Shown here in pieces: positions 2,938 through 55,213 of a stretch of DNA of 64,000 bases. The stretch covers positions 90,173 to 154,172 of the forward strand of contig DJFX01000043.1 of NCBI GenBank assembly GCA_002432635.1, given 5' to 3'. The DNA comes from Halothiobacillaceae bacterium UBA5861 (lineage in GTDB: Bacteria > Pseudomonadota > Gammaproteobacteria > UBA5861). The notes below the pieces were generated by a model. The model had not been told where the DNA came from and made no database searches. It saw only the letters and a list, made by a program, of their open reading frames with translations. The first letter of the stretch is position 1. Every line of letters begins with the position of its first letter. The translations under genes and the position numbers were made by a program.

Positions 2938-4068
2938 TTAAAACTTATCTTCAAAGAACTGTTTGACGCGGTCCATCCAGGAGTGCTCATGAGGCGAGTG
3001 TTTTTTTCCTGGGTGGCCGGAAATCGACTCGCTCAGCTCTTCCAATAGCTTTTTTTGTGCACTTGTTAAGTTGACCGGCGTTTCAACACGAATTCGGCAG
3101 AGTAGGTCGCCTTGGTGCCCGCCTCGTACAGGTCTGACACCTTTGCCACGCAAACGGAAGACCTTTTCGGTCTGAGTGCCCGCTGGGATTTTCAACTTAA
3201 CCTTACCATCCAAGGTAGGTACTTCCAACTCGCCACCGAGTGCAGCGGTGGTGATATTAATGGGTACAAGACACAGCAAGTCAGCGCTGTCTCTTTCAAA
3301 AATAGGGTGAGGGTCGACATGGATTTGTACATACAGATCACCGGGTGGTCCGCTGTGTTCACCCGCTTCCCCCTCACCATTCAAGCGAATTCTGTCGCCA
3401 TTATCCACGCCGGGTGGAATTTTAACGGACAGTGTTTTTTGTTCTTCCAAGCGGCCAGACCCATGGCACTGATCGCAGGGGTCATTAATAACTTTGCCAT
3501 TACCATGACAGGTGGGGCAGGTTTGCTGAACAGAAAAAAAGCCTTGTTGCATGCGGACCTGGCCCGATCCATTACAAGTCGAGCACGTTGTCGGAGATGT
3601 ACCAGGCTTGGCGCCGGTACTGTTGCAGTGGTGGCACGCGACCTTCGTGGGAATTCGAATCTTAACTGTTGTGCCATGGACGGCATCTTCGAGAGGAATA
3701 TTCAGATTGTATTGTAAGTCAGCCCCTCGGTACGCCCGCCGGCCACCCTGTCCGGTTGTGCCAAAAATGTCACCAAATACGTCGCCAAAGATGTCACTGA
3801 AGCTCGCACTGCCTCCGCCACCTCGGCCACCAGTACTTTGATCAACACCGGCATGGCCAAATTGGTCGTATGCTGTGCGTTTGTTTTTGTCGCTGAGAAC
3901 GTCATACGCTTCTTTGGCTTCTTTGAATTTTTTTTCAGCTTCGGTTTCGTTGTCCTGGTTTCGGTCAGGATGGTATTTCATAGCCAGCCGTTTGAAAGCC
4001 TTCTTCAGCTCTGCTTCGCTGGCACTTTTTTGAACACCGAGAACTTCGTAATAATCGCGCTTCGACAT
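2938..4068 (-). CDS. dnaJ: Molecular chaperone DnaJ
   Basis: J-domain with HPD (KYHPDRN), a G/F-rich linker, and four CxxCxGxG zinc-finger repeats. It lies downstream of dnaK. Confidence 0.97.
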
Positions 4069-4089
4069 ACTTTACTGCTTTATTAAAAT

Positions 4090-4120
4090 GATGAAAGTGC
4101 GTGATATGCGCACTTTCATC
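4090..4120 (-). other. Intercistronic stem-loop between dnaK and dnaJ (12-bp stem)
   Basis: GATGAAAGTGCG-tgatatg-CGCACTTTCATC, read directly from the sequence. It is palindromic, so it also folds in the minus-strand transcript. Confidence 0.6.
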
Positions 4121-4151
4121 AGAGGCCTGTGTAAGAAGTAGGAGACAAAGG

Positions 4152-6074
4152 TTATTTTTTATCGTCTTTGACTTCTTCAAATTCCGCATCAACAACGTCT
4201 TCTTTTGATGACGTTTGTTGTTGGTCACCGGGTTCCGCAACACTTTCGTCAGCCGCTTGTTGCTGGTAAAGCCGCTCGGCGAGTTTGCCGGCAACTTCGC
4301 CCAGGGCTGCGGTTTTGGTTTCAATGCTTTCTTTGTCTTCGCCAGACAACTGTTCACGCAGCTCATTGACTTTGGCTTCTATTTCAGACTTTTCTTCAGC
4401 ACTGACTTTGTCACCCAGGTCGCTTACGGTTTTTTCTGCTGAGTGAATCAAGTTTTCAGCTTGGTTGCGTGCGTTAACGAGCTCTTTCAGTTTCCGATCT
4501 TCTTCGGCGTGTTTCTCCGCATCGTCAATCATTTTTTCGACTTCGTCGTCAGAAAGCCCGCTGGAAGCTTTAATAACAATGGACTGTTCTTTGCCCGTCG
4601 CTTTGTCTTTTGCTGATACGTTGAGAATACCGTTGGCATCAATATCAAAAGTGACTTCAATTTGTGGTACTCCACGAGGTGCAGGTGGAATGTCTGAGAG
4701 ATCAAAACGTCCCAATGATTTATTACCACTGGCGATTTCTCGCTCACCTTGTAATACGTGGACGGTAACCGCAGTCTGGTTATCGTCGGCTGTTGAAAAC
4801 ACTTGAGTGGCTTTCGTGGGAATCGTAGTGTTCTTTTCAATCAGGCGGGTCATAACGCCTCCCATTGTCTCAATACCCAGAGACAGCGGGGTGACATCGA
4901 GCAACAACACATCTTTTACATCACCGCCGAGCACGCCACCTTGGATAGCAGCGCCTACCGCAACGGCTTCGTCTGGGTTAACGTCGCGACGGGGTTCTTT
5001 ATTAAAGAAGGCTTTCACCTTTTCCTGGACTTTTGGCATGCGCGTTTGGCCGCCCACCAGAATGATGTCATCAATATCGCCACTGGATAGCCCTGCGTCT
5101 CGTAGTGCCGTTCGGCATGGGTCGATGGTGCGATCAACCAGGTCTTCGACGAGCGACTCAAGCTTTGCCCGCGATACTTTGATGTTGAGGTGTTTGGGTC
5201 CGCTGGCATCGGCGGTAATGTAGGGTAAATTGACTTCGGTCTGTTGCGAAGATGACAGCTCGCATTTTGCTTTTTCGGCCGCTTCTTTTAAGCGTTGCAG
5301 CGCGAGAGGGTCATTGTGAAGGTCGACGCCATTACTCTTCTTGAATTCATCTGCCAAATAGTCGATGAGGCGCAAGTCAAAGTCTTCACCCCCTAAGAAG
5401 GTGTCTCCGTTTGTGGAGAGGACTTCGAACTGGTGTTCGCCATCGATTTCAGCGATCTCAATGATGGAGACATCGAATGTTCCTCCACCGAGGTCGTAAA
5501 CAACGATTTTTGAGTCACCACGCTTTTTATCCATGCCGTAAGCCAGTGCAGCTGCGGTGGGCTCGTTAATAATACGTTTAACATCCAGGCCTGCAATTTT
5601 TCCGGCATCTTTCGTGGCTTGCCGTTGGGAGTCGTTAAAGTAAGCCGGTACGGTAATGACCGCTTCAGTCACTGGTTCGCCAAGGTATTCTTCTGCGGTT
5701 TGCTTCATTTTCATGAGTACGCGTGCAGAGACTTCGGGGGGCGCCATCTTTTTGCCATTGGCTTCCACCCATGCGTCTCCATTATCCGCTTTAACGATTT
5801 TGTAGGGGACAAGCTCAATATCTTTTTGAACTTCATCTTCAGCAAAGCGCCGACCGATCAGCCGCTTTACGGCAAAAAGGGTGTTTTGAGGGTTTGTTAC
5901 CGCTTGGCGCTTGGCCGGCTGGCCGACCAGTACTTCATCGTCATTCGTGAAAGCGACGATCGACGGTGTCGTGCGATCACCTTCCGCATTTTCGATCACT
6001 CGTGGTGTTTGACCTTCCATGACAGCAACACACGAGTTAGTGGTGCCGAGGTCAATTCCAATAATTTTTCCCAT
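4152..6074 (-). CDS. dnaK: Molecular chaperone DnaK (Hsp70)
   Basis: 640 aa with [17 protein letters not shown], and an EEVKDDKK-type acidic C-terminus. GGAGAC RBS. Confidence 0.98.
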
Positions 6075-6123
6075 GGTTGTGTGTCTCCAAAAATTAGGTA
6101 CTGTTGATTTGTTGATGTTTTAT

Positions 6124-6149
6124 CTATGGGCGGTTGAGCAAAATGCAAG
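6124..6149 (-). promoter_or_regulatory. Candidate sigma32 (RpoH) promoter for dnaK
   Basis: The minus strand reads CTTGCA-N12-GCCCATAG, against the consensus CTTGAA-N13-17-CCCCATNT. It sits about 50 nt upstream of the dnaK ATG. Confidence 0.4.
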
Positions 6150-6158
6150 GAGCCGCAG

Positions 6159-6767
6159 TTATTTTGAAACACCAACCAGTGCCGGGCGAATCAAACGGTC
6201 GTTAAGTGTATAGCCTTTTTGCATAACCATGACAACGGTATTGGGTTCTACGCCCTCTGTTTCCTGTGTGTTCATTGCCTGATGAAGTTCGGGGTTAAAT
6301 TTCTCCCCCATTGGGTCAACGGCGACAATATCAAACTTTTCCATGACTTGGATAAGGTTTTTCAGTGTCAGGTCCATGCCTTCTCGAATCTGTTCCAGCT
6401 CTACGTTTTCAGCCTTGGCGGCATTTAGCCCCATTTCCAGACTATCACGGACGCTGAGAAGTTCCTTGGCCATTTTTTCCAGACCGAACTTGCGGGCATT
6501 TTCGACTTCTTTGCTGTTACGCTTGCGTAGATTTTCCATTTCTGCCTGAAGGCGAACGAGCTGATCCCAGTGTTCTTCCGCTTTCTTCTGCGAGGCTTCA
6601 AGTTGGTTCAGGAGGTTATCAGTTTCCTCATCTTTTCCAGGCTCTTTGGCACTGCCTTCCGTAACCTCGGTATTATCAGCTTCTTCTGTCAAGTCGTAGT
6701 CAACTTTTTCGGTATCGATGTTTTTTGTTTCAACGATGTCTTGGTCGTCATCACGATTGTCTGCCAT
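6159..6767 (-). CDS. grpE: Nucleotide exchange factor GrpE
   Basis: 202 aa with an acidic N-terminus, a coiled-coil and the GrpE C-terminal beta domain (..VVMVMQKGYTLNDRLIRPALVGVSK). It sits between hrcA and dnaK. Confidence 0.95.
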   Translation of the reverse strand: MADNRDDDQDIVETKNIDTEKVDYDLTEEADNTEVTEGSAKEPGKDEETDNLLNQLEASQKKAEEHWDQLVRLQAEMENLRKRNSKEVENARKFGLEKMAKELLSVRDSLEMGLNAAKAENVELEQIREGMDLTLKNLIQVMEKFDIVAVDPMGEKFNPELHQAMNTQETEGVEPNTVVMVMQKGYTLNDRLIRPALVGVSK

Positions 6768-6827
6768 GTGTTTCTCGGCTCCGTTTTAATTCGTTATCTT
6801 GCGGTATGAAGGCATTCTCGGTGCACG

Positions 6828-6855
6828 ATATGGGGGCGTTTATTTGAAATTCAAG
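6828..6855 (-). promoter_or_regulatory. Candidate sigma32 (RpoH) promoter for grpE, overlapping the hrcA stop codon
   Basis: The minus strand reads CTTGAA-N14-CCCCATAT, a near-perfect match to the sigma32 consensus. It is about 60 nt upstream of the grpE ATG. Confidence 0.6.
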
Positions 6856-7895
6856 GCTGCACCCAGCAGTTTGGACGTTACATCCACAATAGGGATGATG
6901 CGATCGTAAGCCATCCGGGTCGGGCCAATCACGCCCAGCATGCCAATGACATTGCCGTCTGAATTATAGGGGGCTGTGACAATGCTGCATTCGTCAGGAA
7001 TTTGGTGCCCGGTTTCCTGGCCGATAAAGATACTTACACCTTCGGCAGCAATGCAGTTTTCAAGCAGGTGCAGGATGTCTCGTTTTTGATTGAAGGTATC
7101 AAACAGTTTCTTCAGTAGTTCAACGTCCGAGAGCTCTTCAAACGTCATCAGGTTAGTTTGTCCCTCTACAATGACTGCGTCTTTTTCGGTGTTGTCATCG
7201 GTCATCAATACGTGGCCGGCCATGTCGATCACGGCGCTCATTTGATCGTGCATGTCTGCGCGGGCGGATTCCAGTTCGGTTTTGATCTTATCGCGCACAC
7301 TGGTCAGGTCCATGCCGACATACTCCCGGTTGACGTAGTTCGCGGCGTATTCAAGTTCAGCACGGGAAAAGTCACGATCAACTTTGATAATCCGGTTTTG
7401 AACTTCTCGGTCATTGGTAATGAGAACAACCAGCACGCGCTGATCGGATAGGGCGATGAATTCAATGTGATCAAAAATCACAGCGTTCTGGCGGGGAACA
7501 GTGATGATACCTGCCATGTGGGTCATTTGTGACAGGTAGTTTGAAGCCGTTTTCAGTAATTCTTCTGGGGTGAGATTGGCTTCGAGATTGGCTTGGAAAC
7601 GTTGGATTTCACTGGTATCGAGTGTTGAAACCCGGACTAACTTGTCGACAAAAAAACGGTATCCCTGGGCGGTTGGAATACGCCCTGCTGATGTGTGTGG
7701 AGAGGTTAGAAAGCCCATGTCTTCCAGGTCGCCCATCACGTTGCGAATGGTGGCAGAGCTAAAGCTGATGCTACCCATCTGGGATAATGTGCGCGAACCT
7801 ACGGGTTGACCGGAGCGAATGTACTCCTCAATCAGTAAGCGCAGAATCTGTTGAGCGCGCTCGGGAATAGGCAGTGTTTCTTGTTTCGTCGGCAT
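6840..7895 (-). CDS. hrcA: Heat-inducible transcription repressor HrcA
   Basis: 351 aa with an N-terminal winged-helix (RAQQILRLLIEEYIRSGQPVGSRTL) and an HrcA C-terminal domain. It occupies the classic position upstream of grpE-dnaK-dnaJ. Confidence 0.93.
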   Translation of the reverse strand: MPTKQETLPIPERAQQILRLLIEEYIRSGQPVGSRTLSQMGSISFSSATIRNVMGDLEDMGFLTSPHTSAGRIPTAQGYRFFVDKLVRVSTLDTSEIQRFQANLEANLTPEELLKTASNYLSQMTHMAGIITVPRQNAVIFDHIEFIALSDQRVLVVLITNDREVQNRIIKVDRDFSRAELEYAANYVNREYVGMDLTSVRDKIKTELESARADMHDQMSAVIDMAGHVLMTDDNTEKDAVIVEGQTNLMTFEELSDVELLKKLFDTFNQKRDILHLLENCIAAEGVSIFIGQETGHQIPDECSIVTAPYNSDGNVIGMLGVIGPTRMAYDRIIPIVDVTSKLLGAALNFK

Positions 7896-19341: not shown

Positions 19342-19633
19342 CCAATAACCGTCTGATTTCATTGTGAGTCCAATGCAGCCGTTATCGTGAAGGCGGGCGG
19401 TCACGGGTTGAGACTATTTTTTTCTCTTCGGAAAGGGATGTGCTCTTCTCGATTTTACCATTGAGTGAAAAAAAACTTTATCCGTGGTGAACTTCTACTC
19501 ACAGCGTTAGTCCTAGCTCACAGGTATCCGAAAGGTGCCCAGTTTCCAGCCAATGTTGAACAAAGTCGTAGCCGTTACTGCTGTGAATGATTTGTTTCGA
19601 AACCTTTGCGCGATATGAGCTGGCGGAATCGGT

Positions 19634-19664
19634 ACTTGCATGAAACACGCATTTCATCGCAAGT
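19634..19664. promoter_or_regulatory. Imperfect 12-bp inverted repeat upstream of the DUF2282 precursor gene (candidate operator or 5'-UTR hairpin)
   Basis: ACTTGCATGAAA-cacgca-TTTCAT(c)GCAAGT, ending 39 nt before the ATG at 19703. Confidence 0.35.
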
Positions 19665-19702
19665 ACACAAACCACAATCTAACTAAAGTGAGGTATTTCA
19701 AC

Positions 19703-19963
19703 ATGAAGAAATCAAATATTGCTGTTGTGTCTGCATTAACAGGTCTTTTAGCAATGGGTACTACACTGGCGACTGCGCCGGCTGTCGCAGCTGACAAAGA
19801 GAAATGCTACGGTGTTTCTAAAGCAGGTAAAAATGACTGCGCAACATCAAACAGTTCTTGCGCGGGCACTGCTAAGAAAGACGGTCAGCCAGATGCTTTC
19901 GTGGCGGTTCCCAAAGGTCTTTGTGAAAAGCTTGTGGGTGGCAGCTTAACGCCCAAGTCTTAA
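19703..19963 (+). CDS. bufA: DUF2282 family secreted Cys-containing peptide: bufferin-type (BufA1-like) RiPP precursor
   Basis: 86 aa. It has a Sec signal (MKKSNIAVVSALTGLLAMGTTLATAPAVAA|DKEK) and the DUF2282 signature EKCYGVSKAGKNDCA..SCAG....VPKGLCEKLVGGS with 4 Cys. A GTGAGG RBS lies about 9 nt upstream of the ATG at 19703. The longer ORF-track start at 19640 has no RBS and would bury the signal peptide. Confidence 0.85.
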   Translation: MKKSNIAVVSALTGLLAMGTTLATAPAVAADKEKCYGVSKAGKNDCATSNSSCAGTAKKDGQPDAFVAVPKGLCEKLVGGSLTPKS

Positions 19964-19981
19964 TTATTTTTTGAAGGTGCT

Positions 19982-20015
19982 GCACTTATCCTGTCACAAC
20001 GCATGGGATAAGTGC
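19982..20015 (+). other. Perfect 10-bp stem-loop between the precursor gene and the DUF692 gene
   Basis: GCACTTATCC-(14 nt)-GGATAAGTGC, followed by CAAAAAA with no U-tract. The 3' arm overlaps the GTG at 20012. Confidence 0.7.
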
Positions 20016-20881
20016 CAAAAAATATCATGGAAAAGAACCAAATTCCCGCCAAAGCTGTTGGTTTGGGGCTGCGAGCGCCTCACTATGAGGAGGTCGTACA
20101 GAACAAACCCAAAGTTCCCTGGTTTGAGGTGCACAGCGAAAACTACTTTGACGAATGTGGGCTTAACCGCCATTTTTTGCGGGAAATTGCGCCGCATTAT
20201 CCACTCAGCTTCCACGGGGTAGGTTTGTCATTAGGTTCTTGTGATGAACTGAGTTCACATCACTTGAAGCAATTAAAAGCCTTGATCAATGAATTTCAAC
20301 CCGCGCTGATTTCAGAACATTTAAGTTGGACGGGGACCAATGGGCAATTTTTCAACGACCTGTTACCACTGCCCTATACAGAAGAAGCGCTCAATCTTTT
20401 TTGTCAAAAGGTTGATTGCGTGCAAACGGAGCTTGGACAAAAAATACTGATTGAAAACCCGACGGCTTATCTCCAGTTTGCGGTTTCTCATATGAAAGAA
20501 TGGGAGTTTCTTAATCAGCTTCAGGCGCGTACGGGTTGTGGTTTACTGCTCGATCTGAACAATATTTACGTTAACGCCAGTAACCATGGTGATTCGGCAG
20601 CCACTTATCTGGAATCGATTAACTGGTCTGCGGTTGAAGAAATTCATTTGGCCGGATTTACGGTGAATGAGTACGAGGACGGTGCCATTTTGATCGACAC
20701 ACATGGCAGCCGTGTGCATGACGAAGTCTGGGCACTTTATCGTCAAGCCACGATACAAACAGAGGCACCTGTACTGATCGAATGGGATACCGATATCCCT
20801 GACTTGACTGTACTGGAGGAAGAAGCGGCGAAAGCCCGCCAAATAAATGCAGCCATACAACAGGTGGCAGCATGGGCTTGA
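20012..20881 (+). CDS. bufB: DUF692 family protein (MNIO, multinuclear non-heme iron oxidative enzyme; BufB/MbnB-like)
   Basis: 289 aa with GLGLRAPHY...WFEVHSENYF and TIM-barrel xylose-isomerase-like motifs typical of DUF692. The start is ambiguous, either GTG at 20012 or ATG at 20027. Confidence 0.88.
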   Translation: MPKNIMEKNQIPAKAVGLGLRAPHYEEVVQNKPKVPWFEVHSENYFDECGLNRHFLREIAPHYPLSFHGVGLSLGSCDELSSHHLKQLKALINEFQPALISEHLSWTGTNGQFFNDLLPLPYTEEALNLFCQKVDCVQTELGQKILIENPTAYLQFAVSHMKEWEFLNQLQARTGCGLLLDLNNIYVNASNHGDSAATYLESINWSAVEEIHLAGFTVNEYEDGAILIDTHGSRVHDEVWALYRQATIQTEAPVLIEWDTDIPDLTVLEEEAAKARQINAAIQQVAAWA

Positions 20882-21618
20882 AAGAGATTCAGGAACAGTT
20901 TTCATCTGCTTTGCTGGATAAGAGCGAAGCCTTTTCCTTACAGATTTTGCCGGGTACGTTTCAGGCCGATCAACGGATACAGCTCTACAGAAACAATTTT
21001 TACATCAGCTTATCCGAGGTCCTGTCAGGAGTATTTCCCGTCACCCATGCACTGGTGGGAGATACGTTTTTTGCACAGTTATGTAAAGCGTTTATCCGTC
21101 AACATCCGCCAGCTGAAGGTTCTGTGACACATTACGGAGCAGATCTACCTGACTTTATTGCTTGCCTTTCGCAGGCCGAAAGCACACCCTACTTGGCCGA
21201 CGTTGCCCGTCTTGAATGGGCTTATGCAAAGGTCAACGAATATTGGAAAGTTGAAATGCCTTTCCCGTTTGAAAAGCTGGCGCTGGTTGTCCCGGAAGAG
21301 TGGCCCAATATCCTTTTTAAGTTAGCCAAGAATGTCCACCTGATCTGTTCAGACTTTGCCGTACTGGATATTGTTAACGGTGTGCGGAATGACTGTCTGG
21401 AGGACGTGGTGGTGGCGATTCCGCAGCAGATAATCATCTCTGGAGCGGCTAATCAAGAGATTCAGTGTCAGGCGGTTTCGCCACCAGAATATGCTTTTTT
21501 AGAGGCTATCACCCGAGGTATTGCTTTAGGAGAGACCAGCCCACCACCTGATTTTGAAGCATTCCTGCAGAACATGATCATCAAAGGTGTGATTGATGAT
21601 TTTGAAATGCTGGATTAA
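20872..21618 (+). CDS. bufC: DUF2063 family protein (MNIO partner, BufC-like)
   Basis: 248 aa with RIQLYRNNFYISLSEVL..FPV...LVGDTFF and YLADVARLEWA, characteristic of DUF2063. Its ATG overlaps the end of the DUF692 gene by 10 nt. Confidence 0.85.
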   Translation: MGLKEIQEQFSSALLDKSEAFSLQILPGTFQADQRIQLYRNNFYISLSEVLSGVFPVTHALVGDTFFAQLCKAFIRQHPPAEGSVTHYGADLPDFIACLSQAESTPYLADVARLEWAYAKVNEYWKVEMPFPFEKLALVVPEEWPNILFKLAKNVHLICSDFAVLDIVNGVRNDCLEDVVVAIPQQIIISGAANQEIQCQAVSPPEYAFLEAITRGIALGETSPPPDFEAFLQNMIIKGVIDDFEMLD

Positions 21619-21628
21619 GGAGATAAAA

Positions 21629-22075
21629 ATGATAACAACACTGATTAAAAGCTATGATCGCCTGGTCGAGACACTGGTGGAATACACAACCCCCGTTATC
21701 CTGCTCGCCATGCGGCTGCTGGTTGCGGAGGCTTTTTTCCGGGCAGGACAAACAAAAATTGCTAACTGGGATAGTACGCTCTACTTGTTTGAAGCGGAGT
21801 ACAGCGTTCCGCTGTTACCTTATGAGCTGGCGGCTTACCTGGCGACTGCGACAGAGTTAATCATTCCTGTGCTCCTGGTGTTCGGTTTTTTGGTACGCCC
21901 GGCGGCAGCGGTGCTGTTTGTTTTTAACATCGTTGCTGTTATTTCCTATCCCGTATTATGGGAACAGGGTTTCTATGACCACCGTTACTGGGGGGCCATG
22001 TTATTGACTCTTTGTTTACTGGGTGCGGGTAAAATTTCGATCGATTATTGGTTGAGAAGTCGCTTGTCTGGCTGA
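21629..22075 (+). CDS. DoxX family membrane protein
   Basis: 148 aa with four predicted TM helices and a DoxX-like motif (LLAMRLLVAEAFFRAGQTK). AAGGAG lies 7 nt upstream of the ATG at 21629, which begins 10 nt after the DUF2063 stop. Confidence 0.8.
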   Translation: MITTLIKSYDRLVETLVEYTTPVILLAMRLLVAEAFFRAGQTKIANWDSTLYLFEAEYSVPLLPYELAAYLATATELIIPVLLVFGFLVRPAAAVLFVFNIVAVISYPVLWEQGFYDHRYWGAMLLTLCLLGAGKISIDYWLRSRLSG

Positions 22076-22170
22076 TGAGAAAATCGGAAAATTTGCACAG
22101 ATTGTTCACCTTCTGTGAGCAAGGTAAACCGGGAAGTGGTCTTATGGCGTGACTGGAATATGTTAGCCCT

Positions 22171-22443
22171 ATGCAAAACAGACGATTAACAGATCTTAGA
22201 AACATTGGCAAAAAGATTGCGAGCCGGCTGAACGAAATCGGCATTTTCACAGAGGACGATTTACGCTGCTCAGGACCTGCTCTCACCCACCAGAAACTTA
22301 AAGCACAGTATCCGGATGAGACCCTGCCTGTTTGTTACTACCTCTATGCCTTTGAAGGTGCGCTCTGTGACCGACACTGGAACGAAATCGGTGATTCGAG
22401 AAAGCAAGCATTACTCACCGAAACAGGTCTAATAAACACATAA
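22171..22443 (+). CDS. TfoX/Sxy C-terminal-domain-only protein
   Basis: 90 aa. LTDLRNIGKKIASRLNEIGIFTEDDL resembles the helix-hairpin-helix of the TfoX C-terminal domain. Confidence 0.7.
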   Translation: MQNRRLTDLRNIGKKIASRLNEIGIFTEDDLRCSGPALTHQKLKAQYPDETLPVCYYLYAFEGALCDRHWNEIGDSRKQALLTETGLINT

Positions 22444-22618
22444 ACAGGCGGCGACTTGCGAGCAAACACTCAGCGCCTCGCTGAAATGCTAACGGGTTTT
22501 TTTGTGTCAAACGTTGTGTACGTTTTAGGTGGCTTCCACACTCTCTTCTTTGCTGCTGAGCCAAGAATGTAGACAAATCCGGAAAAAACAGGAATGCTTA
22601 GTCGTTTTATACGACTGA

Positions 22619-24165: not shown

Positions 24166-25089
24166 ATGCGACCTTTTGTTCTGCTTTTTATCTTGCTGAA
24201 TATTCTGTTTTTTCTTTGGGGAAAATATATTCATACCGAGCCTGACTCGGACACAACTCGTAAACGTTCTACGCAAGTAGAACAGCTGGTTTTACAATCA
24301 GAAGTGCATGAGTCATTACCGAAAACAGAATTAGAGCCTGAAATTCCTGCTCAGGTTGAACCTTCTGCTGAGCAGGATGAGGCCGAAGAAGAGCCTCAAG
24401 TCCTGGAGCAGGAGAAAGAAGATGAAGAAGATACTCAAGCCGCTGACCAGGCCAATGAGGAAGCTCCTGTGGAAGAAGAGCAAACATCAGAGTCGAAGCC
24501 GGAGTTACCGCCGGTCATGTCTTCACTTCCTTCTGAGTCTGCCGAGGCTGAAGAGAAAGCGCCTGATGAGCCGAATGAAAAAGAGTCGGCGCTGCAACAG
24601 ATTGTGGAAAATACGGTATCCGCGAGTGACCTATGCTTTACTGTAGGACCTTTTGAAACAGAAGCAGATACGGCCGATGCCGTTGTTAAATTAGTTGATG
24701 TTGGCCTTAATCCCAGTGAGCGCATTTTGACAGAAAAAGAAATCGCGTATTACCGTGTGTATATTGCGCCACCAAACGGCCAAACGGCGAGTCTTACGAC
24801 AAAAGCGCTGAAAGACAAAGGAATTCGAGAGTTTTATGTCATGACAGAGGCCGGGATGGAAAACATGATTTCCCTGGGCTTGTTCAAAGAACGGCGCAAT
24901 GCACTGAAAAAAGAGAAAGAGTTGAAGAAAAAGGGCTTTGATGCCCGCTTGAAAACGCGCTATCGAGAGAAAGCACTGCATTGGCTTGATTACAAAGATA
25001 ACGAGACGGTAGTGACGCCCGAACAATTAAAACAATGGTTTCCTGATGATGTACTCCATCGCCTGGAAAGAGAGTGTCGCTCATTGTAG
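24166..25089 (+). CDS. SPOR domain protein with N-terminal TM anchor and acidic low-complexity linker
   Basis: N-terminal hydrophobic helix, an E/P/Q-rich linker and a C-terminal SPOR-like repeat (YRVYIAP...ISLGLFKERRNA). Confidence 0.75.
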   Translation: MRPFVLLFILLNILFFLWGKYIHTEPDSDTTRKRSTQVEQLVLQSEVHESLPKTELEPEIPAQVEPSAEQDEAEEEPQVLEQEKEDEEDTQAADQANEEAPVEEEQTSESKPELPPVMSSLPSESAEAEEKAPDEPNEKESALQQIVENTVSASDLCFTVGPFETEADTADAVVKLVDVGLNPSERILTEKEIAYYRVYIAPPNGQTASLTTKALKDKGIREFYVMTEAGMENMISLGLFKERRNALKKEKELKKKGFDARLKTRYREKALHWLDYKDNETVVTPEQLKQWFPDDVLHRLERECRSL

Positions 25090-36539: not shown

Positions 36540-37487
36540 TTATTTCAGTCGATTGAAATTTTTGGAGGCAAATAAGTGCCGACCACCAAAGAGTGTGTTT
36601 TCAACCCATGTCAGCAGTCGGTATTTGAATTTGTCGTGCTTGTGTTTGACAGGTGGGTGCCCATCAGGGCGTTTTTCATAGAGGTGATCCTGCCAGTCCA
36701 TGTTGGCGATCGCTTTTTGCATGACCGCCGGATGGGTTTGATTAAAGCGGGGAATATTCTCTAAAGGGCCATAGTCGAACTGGTTGGACTCTCTGGCCTG
36801 TTGTGCTTGTGCTGCATCAGCTCCCCGGTGGTTCGTGCTGAAATAGATGCGCTTTTTCTGCATGGCTTGAGGAGGCCTGACCCACCCATAATGGAAAATA
36901 CGCGCACCAGAATGTACGCAGTTCAGCTTGTAGGTTCCTTCTTTTTTCCGGTAGGAGATGCCGTCAAAATCGGGTATGCGACGAAAACTTTGCGCGGAGC
37001 GAAAGGAGTGTATGTCTGGCCGGTTTCTGATTAAACGAATTTCCTGCTTGTACCAGGCATGTGAGTTATGAGCATGGGCGTAGTCACCCCAAAAGTGTAA
37101 ATAGTCAAACAGCATACCTTCGACGCGTTCATCATCCAGATAGCGTTCGCAATTATGGTAGAGGGTTTCAAGGTCCTCTTCGTGGAGGACTTCATCACCC
37201 TGCAGATAGAGCAGCCAGTCGCCGCTACATCGGGCTTTGGCGAGATCGGTTTGGTGGGCATGTTCGGTGCCCTGCGGGTATTTCTCCAGATCCCAAACGG
37301 TATCAAATAAAACCAGCTTCGGTTCATTCAGTGCTTCGAACTGCTCGCGCGTTGTGTCATCAGGATCGGAGTTGCCCAGTGCGATGACAAATTCATCTAC
37401 GAGTGGGAGGGCACTTTGAACAGACTCAACAATGGGGTAATAGAGTTTGCTGCCATTGCGCAAAAAAGAAAAAGCGCTGATTTTCAT
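36540..37487 (-). CDS. Glycosyltransferase (family 2-like), LPS core cluster
   Basis: 315 aa with an N-terminal GT-A-like fold signature (ISAFSFLRNG...DEFVIALGNSDDDT, QGDE). The call also rests on its position between hldE and GT9/GT4 genes. Confidence 0.6.
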   Translation of the reverse strand: MKISAFSFLRNGSKLYYPIVESVQSALPLVDEFVIALGNSDPDDTTREQFEALNEPKLVLFDTVWDLEKYPQGTEHAHQTDLAKARCSGDWLLYLQGDEVLHEEDLETLYHNCERYLDDERVEGMLFDYLHFWGDYAHAHNSHAWYKQEIRLIRNRPDIHSFRSAQSFRRIPDFDGISYRKKEGTYKLNCVHSGARIFHYGWVRPPQAMQKKRIYFSTNHRGADAAQAQQARESNQFDYGPLENIPRFNQTHPAVMQKAIANMDWQDHLYEKRPDGHPPVKHKHDKFKYRLLTWVENTLFGGRHLFASKNFNRLK

Positions 37488-44804: not shown

Positions 44805-45836
44805 GTGAAAATGAAAATTTTAAAATCAATTGTGATTGCTACGGTTGTTTTGCTCTTCTCCGTACCTGCATGGTCGGCTGAAGAGGTCAATGTTTATTCT
44901 GCTCGAAAGGAAAATTTGATTAAACCATTACTTGATCAGTTTAGCCAAAGTACAGGGATACGCGTTAATTTGATTACCGCCGGCGCAGATGAGCTCATCA
45001 AGCGTTTGCAAACCGAGGGGCGGAATTCACCGGCAGACATCTTGTTAACCGTGGACGCTGGCCGCTTGCACGCCGCAGAGGCAGCGGGTTTGTTGCAAAC
45101 CGTGGAAAGTGACATTCTTAACCAGGCCATTCCTGCTCATTTTCGTGATTTAGATAACCATTGGTTCGGTCTTTCTTTACGCTCACGTGTCATTGTTTAC
45201 AGTAAAGATCGTGTTTCAAGAAGCGAACTTTCCACTTATGAGGACTTGGCGGATGAGAAGTGGAAAGGCCGTATTTGTATTCGGTCCTCAGGCAATATTT
45301 ATAATCAGTCGCTACTAGCCTCTTTGATTGCCCACCATGGTGTAGAGAAAGCAGAAGCCTGGGCTAAAGCTGTAGTGGTCAACATGGCCAGATCACCCAA
45401 GGGTAATGATCGCGCACAGGTCAAAGCCGTGGCAGTGGGTGAGTGTGATATTGCGGTGGTTAATACCTACTATATTGGCATGATGCAGACATCAACAAAG
45501 AATGATGGTCAGAAGGAAGCGGTTGCAAAAGTCGCAGTATTTTACCCGAACCAGGATGATCGGGGCGCCCATATGAATGTCAGTGGAGCGGGTGTCGTGA
45601 CGCATTCAAAAAACCGAGATAATGCCGTTAAACTGTTAGAGTTTCTTGTGCAGGATGAATCCCAGCGCTGGTATGCTGAGAAGAACTTTGAATACCCTGT
45701 GAAAGCCGGTGTGGCGCCGAGTGACACCGTTAAGTCCTGGGGTTATCCGTTTAAGCAGGATTCGCTCGATATCACAATGTTAGGGATTCATAATGCAGAG
45801 GCGGTCAAGGTGTTCGACCGGGCGGGCTGGAAATAA
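44805..45836 (+). CDS. fbpA: Fe(3+) ABC transporter periplasmic substrate-binding protein (FbpA/AfuA type)
   Basis: 343 aa with a signal peptide, VNVYSARKE.LI.PL and the YYIGMM Tyr-containing motifs. Confidence 0.88.
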   Translation: MKMKILKSIVIATVVLLFSVPAWSAEEVNVYSARKENLIKPLLDQFSQSTGIRVNLITAGADELIKRLQTEGRNSPADILLTVDAGRLHAAEAAGLLQTVESDILNQAIPAHFRDLDNHWFGLSLRSRVIVYSKDRVSRSELSTYEDLADEKWKGRICIRSSGNIYNQSLLASLIAHHGVEKAEAWAKAVVVNMARSPKGNDRAQVKAVAVGECDIAVVNTYYIGMMQTSTKNDGQKEAVAKVAVFYPNQDDRGAHMNVSGAGVVTHSKNRDNAVKLLEFLVQDESQRWYAEKNFEYPVKAGVAPSDTVKSWGYPFKQDSLDITMLGIHNAEAVKVFDRAGWK

Positions 45837-45903
45837 GCCTCCAGTGGCGGCCAGCCGTGATTTTCTTCAAGGCTGTTTTTAGAGGTGTTGAAAAAACAAT
45901 AAC

Positions 45904-47619
45904 GTGAATTATCTTGTTCACAATGTTAGGCACCGGATGAGGGGCGTTGCCGTACGCGGCTATGCCCCTTTTCGGTTGTTATCGTCTTCCAGTTGGCTGC
46001 TTTGTGCGGTGTTATGCGCCGGGATCATTGCGGTTCCGGTCGCGACCATTGCCGTTTATGTCTTTGTGCCGGCAGGCCCTGTGTGGTCTCACTTGGTTGA
46101 TACGGTATTGGCGGACTATGTTATTAATTCGCTGGCATTGATGGTTGGCGTGACTTTAGGTGCGGGTGTCATTGGTGTGTCCACGGCGTGGATAACAGCC
46201 ATGTATACGTTCCCAGGGCGTCGCTTGTTTGAATGGGCGCTTTTATTACCCTTAGCGATTCCGACATATATTATTGCGTATATTTATACTGATTTATTAG
46301 AGGTTGCGGGGCCTGTTCAGCAGGGTATCCGCTCATTATTTAATCTCCAATATGGTGAATATTATTTCCCAGATGTGCGGTCCCTCGGTGGGGCCATCCT
46401 GGTTTTCTCGCTGGTGCTGTATCCTTATGTGTACTTGACGTCCCGCGCGGCTTTTCTTTCTCAATCCATTTGTGTGCTGGAGGTGAGCCGTACGCTGGGG
46501 TGTTCCCCCTTTCGCAGCTTTTTCTCTGTTGCCCTTCCCCTGGCTCGGCCTGCGATCATGGTAGGGCTATCGCTGACCTTAATGGAAACCCTGGCAGATT
46601 TCGGGGCTGTTGACTACTTTGGTGTGAGTACCTTCACCACCGGGATTTATCGCACCTGGTTCGGTCTCAATAATGATGCAGCGGCGGCGCAACTTGCCGC
46701 AGTCATGATGTTGTTTATTTTCGCCTTATTGTTACTTGAACGTTGGTCGCGTTTTAAAGCAAAGTTTCACCATGCGAGCGGACGATATCAATCGATACCG
46801 GAGTTGCATTTAAAAGGTGGTAAAGGGTTATTAGCCTTGTTGGTCTGTAGTTTACCGTTGGGGCTTGGCTTTCTGTTACCGTTTGTGCAATTGTGCCGCT
46901 GGGCTGTATCAACATGGCGGGAAATGGTCGATAGTGCCTTTTTGAGCCTGGTGACAAACTCTCTCATGTTAGCGGCTGTTACAGCATTGGTTGCACTTGT
47001 CCCTGCGTTGTTACTTGCGTATGCGCAACGATTGTATCCGGTTCGGACTTTGCGGTTTGCAGCACGTTTTGCGGGGATGGGGTATGCGATTCCAGGCTCA
47101 GTGATTGCTGTGGGTGTTTTGATTCCTTTCGGGATGCTGGATAACTTTGTGGATGGCGTGGTACAAAGCCGCTTTGGGTTTTCAACCGGGCTGATCTTCA
47201 GTGGCACCGTGTTTATTTTGATCTTTGCTTATACTGTGCGCTTCCTGGCGGTATCTTTACAGTCGGTAGAATCGGGGCTTGGCGGTATTCATGCTTCAAT
47301 GGATCAAGCGGCTTTATCGATGGGTAAAGCGCCTTTGGGAGTGTTAAAAGCTGTGCACCTGCCGATGATGAAGGGAACACTGCTGACGGCTGTTCTGTTG
47401 GTGTTTGTAGATGTTTTAAAGGAGCTCCCAGCAACCATGATTCTCAGGCCGTTTAATTTTAATACGCTGGCGGTGAGAGTGCATGAGCTTGCTTCAGATG
47501 AGCGTCTTGCCGATTCCTCCACCGCCGCGATTGCGATTGTGCTGGTGGGTCTTGTTCCCGTGATCATGCTCAGTAAAACGATTGCCCGTTCCAGGCCTGG
47601 ACAACATGAACCAACTTGA
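45904..47619 (+). CDS. fbpB: Fe(3+) ABC transporter permease (fused double-domain, FbpB type)
   Basis: 571 aa with about 12 TM segments and two EAA-like loops (METLADFGAV, VLKELPAT). Confidence 0.88.
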   Translation: MNYLVHNVRHRMRGVAVRGYAPFRLLSSSSWLLCAVLCAGIIAVPVATIAVYVFVPAGPVWSHLVDTVLADYVINSLALMVGVTLGAGVIGVSTAWITAMYTFPGRRLFEWALLLPLAIPTYIIAYIYTDLLEVAGPVQQGIRSLFNLQYGEYYFPDVRSLGGAILVFSLVLYPYVYLTSRAAFLSQSICVLEVSRTLGCSPFRSFFSVALPLARPAIMVGLSLTLMETLADFGAVDYFGVSTFTTGIYRTWFGLNNDAAAAQLAAVMMLFIFALLLLERWSRFKAKFHHASGRYQSIPELHLKGGKGLLALLVCSLPLGLGFLLPFVQLCRWAVSTWREMVDSAFLSLVTNSLMLAAVTALVALVPALLLAYAQRLYPVRTLRFAARFAGMGYAIPGSVIAVGVLIPFGMLDNFVDGVVQSRFGFSTGLIFSGTVFILIFAYTVRFLAVSLQSVESGLGGIHASMDQAALSMGKAPLGVLKAVHLPMMKGTLLTAVLLVFVDVLKELPATMILRPFNFNTLAVRVHELASDERLADSSTAAIAIVLVGLVPVIMLSKTIARSRPGQHEPT

Positions 47620-48649
47620 ACTCAGAGGCATTACGCTGCAGCAAAGCGGCAAAACGATCGTCAAAGACGTGAACTTGTCACTGGAAGCCGGGGAAATCGG
47701 CTGCCTGTTAGGCCCAAGTGGATGCGGTAAAACGACACTTCTAAAGTGCATAGCAGGCTTTTTGTCACAGCAGTCGGGGGAAGTCGTCATACGAAACCAA
47801 GTTATTCGACGTGGGCATAGATTTCCGCCAGAAAAAAGGCAGGTAGGCATGGTGTTTCAGGATTTAGCCTTGTTTCCGCATTTATCGGTGTCGGATAACA
47901 TTGGGTTTGGGCTGCGGTCCCTGTCGAAGCTGAAGCGTACCTATCGCATTGAACAGCTATTGAGGTTGGTCGGTATGTCTAAGTATAAGCATGCCTTTCC
48001 GCACGAACTTTCCGGCGGCGAGCAGCAGCGAATTGCCCTGATCCGGGCGATGGCGCCTTCCCCCGCCTTATTGTTGATGGATGAGCCTTTTAGCAGCCAG
48101 GATACGGATCGCCGAGAGCGGCTTTCCATGGAAGTGCGTGATGTCCTCAAGAAAGAAGGCATGACGGCATTACTGGTTACACATGATCAGGCTGAGGCTT
48201 TTGCTATATCCGATAAGATGGGTTTGCTGGCGCAGGGCATATTGCATCAGTGGGGCTTAAGCTATGACTTGTACCATGAGCCCCACTCGCCTTTTGTTGC
48301 CAATTTTATTGGTAAAGGGGTGTTATTGCGCGGCCGGGTCGTCAATGAACGGACCTTACAAACCCCTTTGGGGTATGTCAGTGGCGAATTCTCCCGGCAG
48401 TATTCCGCCGGTTTTAACGTGCGCCTCTTAGTGCGGCCTGATGATATCATCCATGATGATGAGGCGGCTAAAACGGCTAAGGTCGTCAAAAAAACATTCC
48501 AGGGGGCCACTTTTCTGTACACGCTGGTGCTTCCAGGAGGAGATCAAGTCTTGTGCTTGGCATCAAGCCATCATGATCACGAAGTGGGTGAAGAGATCGG
48601 TGTGCGCTTGGAAATGGACCATTTAGTGGTTTTTGATGCCGACGGCTAA
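47606..48649 (+). CDS. fbpC: Fe(3+) ABC transporter ATP-binding protein (FbpC type)
   Basis: Walker A GPSGCGKTT, signature LSGGEQQR and Walker B LLLMDEP. I prefer the ATG at 47606 (MNQLELRG), which overlaps the end of fbpB by 14 nt. Confidence 0.9.
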   Translation: MNQLELRGITLQQSGKTIVKDVNLSLEAGEIGCLLGPSGCGKTTLLKCIAGFLSQQSGEVVIRNQVIRRGHRFPPEKRQVGMVFQDLALFPHLSVSDNIGFGLRSLSKLKRTYRIEQLLRLVGMSKYKHAFPHELSGGEQQRIALIRAMAPSPALLLMDEPFSSQDTDRRERLSMEVRDVLKKEGMTALLVTHDQAEAFAISDKMGLLAQGILHQWGLSYDLYHEPHSPFVANFIGKGVLLRGRVVNERTLQTPLGYVSGEFSRQYSAGFNVRLLVRPDDIIHDDEAAKTAKVVKKTFQGATFLYTLVLPGGDQVLCLASSHHDHEVGEEIGVRLEMDHLVVFDADG

Positions 48650-48739
48650 GCAAAAAGCATCGTGTTAGCATCACTTCTCTGTGATGCAGCAATCATGCAA
48701 AATTAATCACCTAATTATTTCTAAAGTAGATAAAATGTT

Positions 48740-49804
48740 ATGAATCTGAAAAAAATTCCTGCCACCATTGTGACGGGCTTCCTCGGCAGTGGGAAAACAA
48801 CACTGTTGTCCAATATCCTCAAAAATGCCCAGGGCAAGCGCATCGCTGTGATCGTCAACGAGTTTGGAGCCGTAGATATTGATGCGGCCTTGCTTAAAGG
48901 GTGTGCGCTCGGCTGCGAGGATGAAGAACAGGTTGATGAAGGGATTTATGAACTGGCCAATGGCTGTATTTGTTGTACTGTTCAGGAAGAATTTCATCCC
49001 GTCATGCAAAAACTGGTTGAGAGAAGAAAGGATATTGACCATATTCTGATTGAAACATCAGGGCTTGCGTTGCCGAAACCGCTGGTCCAGGCATTTAACT
49101 GGCCCGATATAAAAAACTATTGCACGGTTGATGCCGTCGTTACCGTAGTGGATGGCCCAGCTTTAGCTGCGGGTACGTTTGCGATTGATCCAGAAGCTGT
49201 TGCTGAGCAGAGAGCCGCTGATGAAAACTTAGACCATGAGTCGAGCTTACAGGAATTGTTTGATGATCAGCTTTCTGCGGCGGATTTGGTTGTTGTAAGT
49301 AAAGGTGACTTATTGAGCCAGTCTCAGGGTTTTGAGGTGGAAAGCTTACTTCACGATCAATTGCCCGACACAGTCAAAGTCATTTCCGTTAATGCGGGAA
49401 AGATTGACCCTCGTATCCTGATGGGGCTCGATGCGGCGGCTGAAGATCGTATCGAACAGCTCACCACACACCATGATCGTCATCATGAGCATGATGAGCG
49501 CCACGAGCATGCCCATGAAGCGTTTGATAGCGTCACTTTCGAAGCGAAGGATGTTGATGGTGAGCAGTTGCTTGAGGCATTAAAAACATTTGTTGCACAA
49601 AATACGGTCTATCGGGTGAAAGGTATTCTTGCGTTGAAGGGAAAGCCGCTTCGCCAGGTTATCCAAGGTGTTGGAAGTCGGTTTGAAGTCTATTTTGAAA
49701 ACAGATGGGAACCCGATGAAGAGCGAGGTACTAAGGTCGTTTTAATTGGCAAAAATTTAGATGAAAACGCAGTTAAGTTGCATTTAGAGGCATGTATTTC
49801 TTAA
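48740..49804 (+). CDS. CobW/G3E-family GTPase metallochaperone (COG0523) with His-rich linker
   Basis: GFLGSGKTT P-loop, the CxCC metal motif (NGCICCTVQ), ETSG, and the His-rich stretch HHDRHHEHDERHEHAHE. Confidence 0.88.
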   Translation: MNLKKIPATIVTGFLGSGKTTLLSNILKNAQGKRIAVIVNEFGAVDIDAALLKGCALGCEDEEQVDEGIYELANGCICCTVQEEFHPVMQKLVERRKDIDHILIETSGLALPKPLVQAFNWPDIKNYCTVDAVVTVVDGPALAAGTFAIDPEAVAEQRAADENLDHESSLQELFDDQLSAADLVVVSKGDLLSQSQGFEVESLLHDQLPDTVKVISVNAGKIDPRILMGLDAAAEDRIEQLTTHHDRHHEHDERHEHAHEAFDSVTFEAKDVDGEQLLEALKTFVAQNTVYRVKGILALKGKPLRQVIQGVGSRFEVYFENRWEPDEERGTKVVLIGKNLDENAVKLHLEACIS

Positions 49805-50190: not shown

Positions 50191-52068
<1,878 letters not shown>

Positions 52069-54753: not shown

Positions 54754-54781
54754 ATGGCGGCAGCCAGGCAGCCGCCGCCAT
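54754..54781. terminator. GC-rich hairpin between the convergent LysR gene and the small secreted-peptide gene (candidate bidirectional terminator)
   Basis: ATGGCGGCaGC-caggca-GCcGCCGCCAT, 10 bp with one mismatch. Neither side has a clean U-tract. Confidence 0.4.
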
Positions 54782-54797
54782 GCTTGCAGCAAACACA

Positions 54798-55031
54798 TTA
54801 CTTGCTGTTCAGTGGTAAGTCGTCAATGTCCTGTAAATTGAGCGCAGGATCGTTTTCGTCCAAGAAATTCAGCGGTAAATCGCTTGTATCCGATGAATGT
54901 AAAGGAACGTCATCCAGTTTTGGTGCACTTAAGACAGTGTCGATGTGGAAGTCCACATCTCCGTGCAAGCCGGCGAAAGCTGGTAAGCTGAAGGATGAAG
55001 CAAGGATAGCGATGGCAGTTACTTTTTTCAT
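54798..55031 (-). CDS. Small secreted acidic repeat protein (77 aa), no recognisable family
   Basis: GGAGAG RBS 6 nt upstream of the ATG. Signal peptide MKKVTAIAILASSFSLPAFA|G. The mature part is about 25% Asp/Glu with four D-x-(P)-L-N/H repeats (DDVPLH, SDLPLN, DPALN, DDLPLN). Confidence 0.6.
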   Translation of the reverse strand: MKKVTAIAILASSFSLPAFAGLHGDVDFHIDTVLSAPKLDDVPLHSSDTSDLPLNFLDENDPALNLQDIDDLPLNSK

Positions 55032-55213
55032 GATACTCTCCGTAAATGTAAGTGGGGGTAAGCAATGTTTTTGCTTAGGGAGTATCTTATCAATTCCATT
55101 TATAAATATTAGATGTCAATTTTGAATAGCATTCATTCCAATGTTGAATAAAAAATATCAAATGATCGCTCGTCTTCCACGAATAGAATGAATATGCCTG
55201 ATTAGCGGGAGGC

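Follow-up and report, generated by a model that had tools for sequence, protein, structure and literature searches.

We analyzed a window of 64,000 nt from the genome of Halothiobacillaceae bacterium UBA5861 (contig DJFX01000043.1), "the window" meaning hereafter this whole stretch of DNA, and concentrated on a four-gene locus at positions 19703-22075, designated bufABCD. In the six-frame list of open reading frames (ORFs), this segment of the + strand consists of four co-directional and tightly spaced ORFs. The first, bufA (19703-19963), encodes 86 aa and was assigned as a bufferin precursor of the BufA1/DUF2282 family. It is followed by bufB (20012-20881; 289 aa from a GTG start), assigned as a bufferin maturase belonging to the multinuclear non-heme iron oxidative enzymes (MNIO, DUF692), by bufC (20872-21618; 248 aa), encoding a DUF2063/HvfC_N partner protein, and by bufD (21629-22075; 148 aa), encoding a DoxX-family membrane protein. 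As read on the sequence, bufB and bufC share 10 nt, ATGGGCTTGA, and the 10-nt spacer between bufC and bufD, GGAGATAAAA, contains the Shine-Dalgarno (SD) sequence GGAG of bufD itself. A first-pass annotation of the same DNA had described four packed genes on one strand, and we recovered all of them on the + strand of the ORF list, with the positions, sizes and motifs that it had given. Its junctions of -10 and +10 nt were also found again, and its distance of 48 nt between bufA and bufB holds for the GTG start only. Indeed, both this gap and the BufB length of 289 aa were obtained because the GTG at position 20012 was taken as the start, and gene callers on identical public contigs use instead the ATG at 20027, which gives a protein of 284 aa and a gap of 63 nt. 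The five extra codons that follow from the GTG start are the least conserved part of bufB in comparison with the nearest relative (PKNI here, SKST there).

The first-pass annotation had proposed the families DUF2282, DUF692, DUF2063 and DoxX for the four products, with profile hidden Markov model searches as the check. In these searches, all four proteins scored above the Pfam cut-offs: 85.7 bits for BufA with DUF2282 (PF10048, cut-off 22.4), 341.7 bits for BufB with MbnB_TglH_ChrH (PF05114, cut-off 25), 85.0 bits for residues 5-96 of BufC with DUF2063 (PF09836, cut-off 27.2) and 60.9 bits for BufD with DoxX (PF07681, cut-off 23.6). The family assignments were thus confirmed for the entire operon.

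We then considered each product, starting with the precursor. The start codon of bufA is an internal ATG of a 107-aa ORF; this start, giving the 86-aa protein, was preferred over the in-frame ATG at 19640 because a GAGG SD sequence, read from the sequence at 19690..19693 (+ strand), lies 9 nt before it. The PF10048 match of BufA covers the full profile (1-53/53), and a profile made from 48 homologues matched the bufA ORF and nothing else in the window. Residues 1-29 (19703-19789, + strand) form a predicted Sec signal peptide, with a positively charged start (MKK), a hydrophobic core of 20 residues and the motif APAVA/AD, the slash marking the predicted cleavage site; all BufA homologues have Ala29, and nearly all of them Pro26 and Ala27. 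The remaining 57 aa (19790-19960, + strand) constitute the predicted core, with CysI-CysIV at core positions 6, 17, 24 and 45, corresponding to Cys35, Cys46, Cys53 and Cys74 of the precursor. These four cysteines are invariant in the 48 homologues, as are E33, G37, G42, N44-T48, S52-T56, D60, Q62, D64-F66, P70 and G72. The product therefore has the size, the Sec-type leader and the four cysteines of the precursor outlined in the first-pass annotation. The core has an isoelectric point of 8.8 and an unmodified monoisotopic mass of 5715.80 Da. A low-confidence AlphaFold model of BufA places strands at residues 32-36 and 66-70, matching the sheet of two strands found by nuclear magnetic resonance in Buf1. 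A sequence search of BufA against the PDB gave no match. A search of 1.84 billion cluster representatives with the BufA profile returned 1,725 clusters at E <= 1e-3. The top match (P0241, 2435 aa, with 32 matched stretches) was rejected as a bufferin: it is made up of about 32 tandem repeats and looks like a translated satellite repeat matching the leader region.

The enzyme BufB carries the motifs GLGLRAPHY and WFEVHSENYF. With 368.3 bits, it passed the cut-off of 310 of the NCBIfam equivalog model NF050167 (MNIO_BufB, "MNIO family bufferin maturase"). By contrast, it remained below the cut-offs of the NCBIfam models for HvfB (220.9 bits against 360) and MbnB (TIGR04159, 64.9 against 325), and failed the ApyH and ChrH models as well. 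Since BufB passes the BufB model and fails those for HvfB, ApyH, MbnB and ChrH, the enzyme is specifically of the bufferin type. Its best solved relative is 3BWW, a DUF692 crystal structure, with a full-length alignment (E 3.7e-37), and several MbnB and TglH structures also align with it. All nine columns of the metal site are conserved in BufB (H68, H103, E148, D181, N184, H212, D229, H231 and E257), and these residues fall in the motifs FH, (E/D)H, EN, D..N, HxAG, DTH and E(W/R)D that are common to 3BWW and MbnB. The ligands of sites 1 and 2 were assigned after the structures of MbnB. BufB also has all of the site-3 residues (Asn, Asp and His) that HvfB cannot do without.

In the partner protein BufC, we observed the motifs LYRNNF and VARLEWA. 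An AlphaFold2 model of BufC (predicted local distance difference test score, pLDDT, 91.5; predicted template modelling score 0.87) consists of a helical N-terminal domain and an alpha/beta C-terminal domain, and its best Foldseek matches in the PDB were TglI of the TglHI holoenzyme (8hi7_A, E 7.8e-8) and NGO1945 (3dee, E 1.5e-3), the latter serving in the captophorin paper as a structural example of a DUF2063 MNIO partner. The modelled fold of BufC is that of an MNIO partner. In Buf1-type clusters, the DUF2063 partner has a C-terminal RRE-like domain and its gene directly follows that of the MNIO, in line with the alpha/beta domain of the model and with the position of bufC. A PDB search with the BufC sequence gave no match, and the NCBIfam HvfC model gave a sub-threshold score (39.3 bits, cut-off 142). 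Homologues of BufC are named "HvfC/BufC N-terminal domain-containing protein". Concerning BufD, hydropathy analysis indicated four hydrophobic segments, at about residues 20-37, 60-88, 91-111 and 120-138, in line with the DoxX protein with four transmembrane segments that had been proposed initially. The NCBIfam HvfX model was not passed by BufD either (62.8 bits, cut-off 80). A DoxX gene is frequent in the core set of Buf1 clusters and is not obligatory.

Several related systems combine an MNIO with a partner protein. The BufA2 model NF050166 gave 29.5 bits with BufA (cut-off 60), which has four Cys and not six or twelve as in Buf2 (BUF_6/12Cys). Given the PF10048 match of bufA and the sub-threshold BufA2, HvfC and HvfX scores, the precursor therefore belongs to the Buf1 (DUF2282) branch and not to the Buf2 or oxazolin branches. 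Oxazolin (HvfA-HvfBC(X)), fontiphorin and gonophorin (the captophorins with EGKCG repeats) likewise depend on a related MNIO and a DUF2063 partner, often with DoxX/HvfX, and share Sec-leader precursors, 5-thiooxazole chemistry and Cu binding (PMC13097082, PMC11252979). However, the oxazolin branch is characterized by EGKCG repeats and we found none in BufA, and the BufB and BufC of the window lie below the HvfB and HvfC cut-offs. The MbnA/MbnB/MbnC system of methanobactin has in common with the locus the MNIO fold and its metal ligands, the modification of Cys and a copper-binding product. It differs in that neither MbnA nor MbnC is present at the locus, where the partner is a DUF2063 protein, and in that methanobactins are secreted copper scavengers with oxazolone/thioamide groups and have no Sec leader.

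To place the operon among its relatives, we compared it with public genomes. The nearest genome is that of an uncultured organism, "Gammaproteobacteria bacterium MAG.318", a metagenome-assembled genome (MAG), in which BufA, BufB, BufC and BufD are 99, 93, 91 and 97% identical, respectively. Its neighbourhood is syntenic throughout (GGDEF, M61 peptidase, bufABCD, TfoX_C, birA, coaX). Contigs of at least six independent samples, a beach-sand metagenome among them, encode proteins identical to BufC. Oceanospirillum and Motiliproteus come next after MAG.318, their BufB being 59-61% identical. We further compared 80 related loci, which belong to Alpha-, Beta- and Gammaproteobacteria and to a few other groups: a bufA-like ORF stands just upstream of bufB in 69 of them, and the full A-B-C-D order was found in 36, although the genes were sought with only the single sequences of the window as queries. 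Eleven further gammaproteobacterial loci repeat this arrangement with all four families, except for one Psychromonas locus with a split bufB. Loci with the operon belong to Vibrio, Motilimonas, Psychromonas, Agarivorans, Grimontia, Alginatibacterium and Motiliproteus, in some cases with tandem precursors. In Oceanospirillum (L002), Agarivorans (L092), a metagenome contig from the Joint Genome Institute (L096) and Motiliproteus (L098), bufB comes after a tandem pair of bufA genes. In Psychromonas sp. MME2 (L091, 3788-4680), gene calling divides bufB into two ORFs (139 and 162 aa), pointing to a frameshift or a pseudogene.

The bufA1BCD operons of Vibrio, Motilimonas, Motiliproteus, Oceanospirillum and other marine Gammaproteobacteria are made of the same four genes with near-identical sizes, and the enzymes are far more diverged than the precursor between the window and Vibrio. 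In comparison with Vibrio, identity was 84% for BufA, 57% for BufD, 51% for BufB and 31% for BufC, so that bufA is better conserved than the other three genes. BufA identity was 69-84% with Oceanospirillum, Motiliproteus and Vibrio, and 70-74% with Motilimonas and Motiliproteus sp. MSK22-1. A mild incongruence was observed, BufA being closer to Vibrio and BufB closer to Oceanospirillum and Motiliproteus (59-61%). Ribosomally synthesized peptides that are modified after translation (RiPPs) usually have variable cores, and the conservation of BufA is the reverse of this pattern. Such a highly conserved precursor fits the published view of Buf1 as a folded mini-protein. At short range, the codon differences from MAG.318 were mostly synonymous, with synonymous to non-synonymous counts of 15:1 for bufA, 38:17 for bufB, 32:23 for bufC and 23:5 for bufD. 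This excess therefore indicates purifying selection on all four genes, strongest on the precursor.

The order buf1ABCD has been described for Caulobacter vibrioides (PMC11626156) and in a survey of the MNIO landscape (PMC12452194). The C. vibrioides operon (CCNA_03363-03366; Leprevost et al. 2024, PMC11626156) matches that of the window in its four families and in their arrangement. The two precursors share a Sec-type leader, four Cys with I-II and III-IV spacings of 11 and 21, a predicted two-strand sheet and an aromatic residue 8 positions before CysIV (Phe66 here, Trp44 there). In contrast, the core of Caulobacter Buf1 has 68 aa and that of BufA 57, no sigF/nrsF-type genes are found near the operon of the window, and the host is a marine gammaproteobacterium, whereas C. 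vibrioides is a freshwater alphaproteobacterium. Cupriavidus metallidurans and Legionella pneumophila have operons of this type as well, described as gig (gold-induced genes) and since recognised to be bufferin clusters, for which metal induction is documented. Overall, the locus is very probably a canonical Buf1-type bufferin ("captophorin") operon, bufA1-bufB-bufC-bufD, on the chromosome of a gammaproteobacterium that is uncultured and of marine or beach-sand origin. The passing of the NF050167 equivalog model and the canonical buf1ABCD order uphold the bufferin-type cluster proposed in the first-pass annotation.

The chemistry, the export and the metal binding that may be expected at this locus are inferred by analogy with Caulobacter Buf1. 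In C. vibrioides, BufB and BufC are necessary and sufficient for the modification, which has been reconstituted in vitro with BufA1; CysII and CysIII are converted to 5-thiooxazoles and CysI-CysIV form a disulfide; the Sec leader is used for export; and Buf1 binds Cu 1:1, with dissociation constants of ~6e-15 M for Cu2+ and ~7e-20 M for Cu+ (PMC11626156). DoxX is dispensable there for modification and for copper protection (PMC11626156). Later papers deal with the assignment of the modified groups as 5-thiooxazole, as opposed to oxazolone/thioamide. By analogy, the iron enzyme BufB, in complex with BufC, would perform in the cytoplasm a four-electron oxidation of Cys46 and Cys53 to 5-thiooxazoles, with a loss of 4 Da each. 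The modified precursor would then be exported by the Sec pathway and cut by signal peptidase after Ala29 (AVA/AD), and a Cys35-Cys74 disulfide would form in the periplasm, giving a product of 57 residues with a mature mass about 10 Da below 5715.80 Da. This product would bind one Cu(I) or Cu(II) through two thiooxazole S and two N, and may thereby buffer periplasmic copper, with BufD (DoxX) as a probable accessory protein.

A few observations weigh against a copper-buffering Buf1 operon. At the level of the peptide, the spacing of the four cysteines of BufA is 11/7/21, as compared to 11/8/21 in Caulobacter Buf1 (Cys12/23/31/52), so that CysII and CysIII are separated by one residue fewer than in the characterized peptide. 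His and Met are both absent from the mature BufA peptide, which could therefore have a different affinity or selectivity for metals. AlphaFold modelled BufA with low confidence (pLDDT 58.6), and the leader and its cleavage site were judged by sequence rules of thumb only. At the level of regulation, no sigma-70-like promoter was found at the scan threshold in the 361-nt upstream region (19342-19702), and no gene for an extracytoplasmic function (ECF) sigma factor, an NrsF anti-sigma factor, CueR, CopA or Cus proteins was found in the 64-kb window. Since the window holds no copper or metal-regulator gene, the link of this operon to copper therefore derives wholly from homology. The sole sigma factor of the window is an rpoD-like gene (50191-52068). 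A linked ECF sigma/NrsF pair is found in some Buf1 clusters and is not a defining feature. Most buf loci of marine Gammaproteobacteria, including that of Vibrio, lie amid unrelated housekeeping genes and have no adjacent regulator, whereas L096 and L098 have an adjacent sigma gene. In L098, genes for an ECF sigma factor and an RskA-type anti-sigma factor are located upstream of the operon, and in L096 a gene of the sigma-70 family (ECF-like) is located downstream.

These observations bear first on the possibility that the same biosynthesis serves another job in this organism, such as the handling of another metal (Au, Cd, Hg or Zn), a role with DoxX in redox or sulfur stress, or constitutive housekeeping. 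The lack of a linked metal regulator or copper gene within 64 kb, next to housekeeping neighbours (M61 peptidase, birA, coaX), and the shorter loop between the modified Cys would suit it. In addition, gig/buf operons elsewhere respond to gold, cadmium, copper or BvgAS, and MerC-bufferin fusions and doxX genes have led to the published suggestion of roles with other metals and stresses. However, Caulobacter Buf1 selected copper from a metal mixture, and the MNIO-DUF2063 (MNIO-PME1) products characterized to date generally bind Cu. The core residues around the modified Cys are also strongly conserved across many genera, which argues for a shared function. We therefore consider another job to be unlikely.

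We gave a similarly small chance to a periplasmic metal buffer that is under different control, for example post-transcriptional or constitutive, or that has an altered metal preference. Such a different control or use was considered because there is no linked sigma/anti-sigma pair, the neighbours are housekeeping genes, the CysII-CysIII loop is shorter and a 35-nt hairpin lies in the leader of bufA. This last feature is an imperfect palindrome or RNA hairpin, GTACTTGCATGAAA-cacgc-ATTTCATcGCAAGTAC, at 19632..19666 on the + strand, and is a possible part of the system. It has a 14-bp stem with a folding energy of -19.2 kcal/mol (z = -2.75 in comparison with shuffled sequences), it is the sole match in the window, and it is located 24 nt upstream of the bufA SD with no T-run after it. 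In the nearest MAG, which is a single diverged relative, one substitution in the stem keeps a G.U pair and another breaks a pair. This palindrome may be a stem of the 5' untranslated leader or an operator.

We also weighed whether the operon could be a remnant, decaying or silent, whose expression has ceased. The absence of a recognisable sigma-70 promoter upstream would be consistent with it, and the Psychromonas bufB split in two ORFs indicates that decay may occur in the family. Nevertheless, the operon of the window has four intact frames with SD sequences and translationally coupled junctions, synonymous differences dominate in comparison with the nearest MAG in all four genes, and the same protein sequences recur in at least six independent samples, so that a remnant appears very improbable. 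Finally, the older database reading, with DUF2282 as a "predicted integral membrane protein", DUF692 as a TIM-barrel protein resembling sugar isomerases, DUF2063 ("putative DNA-binding domain") as a DNA-binding regulator and DoxX as a quinol-oxidase subunit, in the absence of any RiPP chemistry, persists in Pfam descriptions and many database records and can be practically dismissed, since the sole hydrophobic stretch of BufA is an N-terminal leader that ends in AVA/AD, the BufC model matches MNIO partners and not DNA-binding regulators, BufB passes a curated bufferin-maturase equivalog model, and the modification of BufA1 by BufB and BufC in vitro contradicts it (PMC11626156). A canonical Buf1-type bufferin operon is hence the reading that we retained.

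Regarding the other features of the upstream region, a palindrome, CTGTTGAACAG, was observed upstream of bufA in Vibrio (L081 and L083, position -53) and in Oceanospirillum (L002), and a copy with two mismatches, ATGTTGAACAA, is present in the window at 19553-19563, at -150 from bufA. In addition, the bufA upstream regions of the first 80 loci showed an enrichment of about 7-fold for TGTTNAACA. A shared bufA operator was nevertheless rejected: the motif was absent (at <=1 mismatch) in nine further loci from eight genera or lineages, and the chance expectation for a match with two mismatches is about 0.18 per 400 nt. The palindrome of Vibrio and Oceanospirillum may be lineage-specific or due to chance. 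In the nearest MAG (L001, about 3808-4075), about 260 nt are additionally present directly after the M61 stop codon as compared to position 19342 of the window, and the remaining intergenic region aligns. No RNA family of Rfam was found in or near the locus, the window holding two tRNAs only. After bufD, we detected no convincing intrinsic terminator (z -0.55 for 22070-22175 and -0.41 for 22440-22560, in comparison with shuffled sequences). The TfoX_C ORF downstream may therefore be co-transcribed with the operon. This ORF (22171-22443, same strand, 95 nt after bufD) encodes 90 aa with the C-terminal domain of TfoX only (PF04994, 68.7 bits).

The operon is flanked in the window by the M61 peptidase gene on one side and by TfoX_C and birA on the other, with coaX also near, whereas the flanking genes in Vibrio are the rep helicase gene and prlC. 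The M61 peptidase and TfoX_C were rejected as parts of the system: their synteny with the operon is confined to the nearest MAG, and neither gene borders bufABCD in the further buf loci that we examined, where the TfoX_C ORF is absent and a single M61 match lies ~7 kb away on the opposite strand, in locus L010. Base composition gave no informative signal of horizontal transfer, with a GC content of 47.0% for the operon in comparison with 49.2% for the window, and GC at third codon positions slightly low in bufA alone. Elsewhere, the window carries ordinary chromosomal genes (dnaK/dnaJ/grpE/hrcA, rph, a lipopolysaccharide (LPS) core cluster, glnE, rpoD and murB). The heat-shock cluster hrcA-grpE-dnaK-dnaJ occupies 2938-7895 on the - strand, and its HrcA points to control of the CIRCE type. 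At 44805-49804, we observed an ATP-binding cassette importer (solute-binding protein, fused double permease of 571 aa and TOBE-domain ATPase) followed by a GTPase of the COG0523/CobW family; this importer and GTPase may represent a metal-supply module, ~23 kb from the buf operon. Three ORFs had no Pfam match at E <= 1e-5: one of 307 aa with a long acidic low-complexity middle part, after coaX (24166-25089), one of 315 aa within the LPS-core glycosyltransferase cluster (36540-37487) and one of 123 aa after a LysR regulator (54754-55125).

The first-pass annotation had assumed that standard annotation would miss this locus, an assumption that is now out of date. NF050167 names BufB, and NCBI and UniRef name the 70-84% identical precursors of Vibrio and Motilimonas "BufA1 family periplasmic bufferin-type metallophore". 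In addition, the Pfam labels of PF10048 and PF09836 are BufA1 and HvfC_N, respectively, and BufC homologues already carry the HvfC/BufC name. The locus thus adds one copy to a large, described and by now routinely annotated family, and no feature sets this copy apart. Many buf operons of marine Gammaproteobacteria have no linked regulator. Overall, the locus adds one uncultured marine gammaproteobacterium to a RiPP family with thousands of members and, by analogy with Caulobacter Buf1, it would predict a copper-handling capacity in its host.

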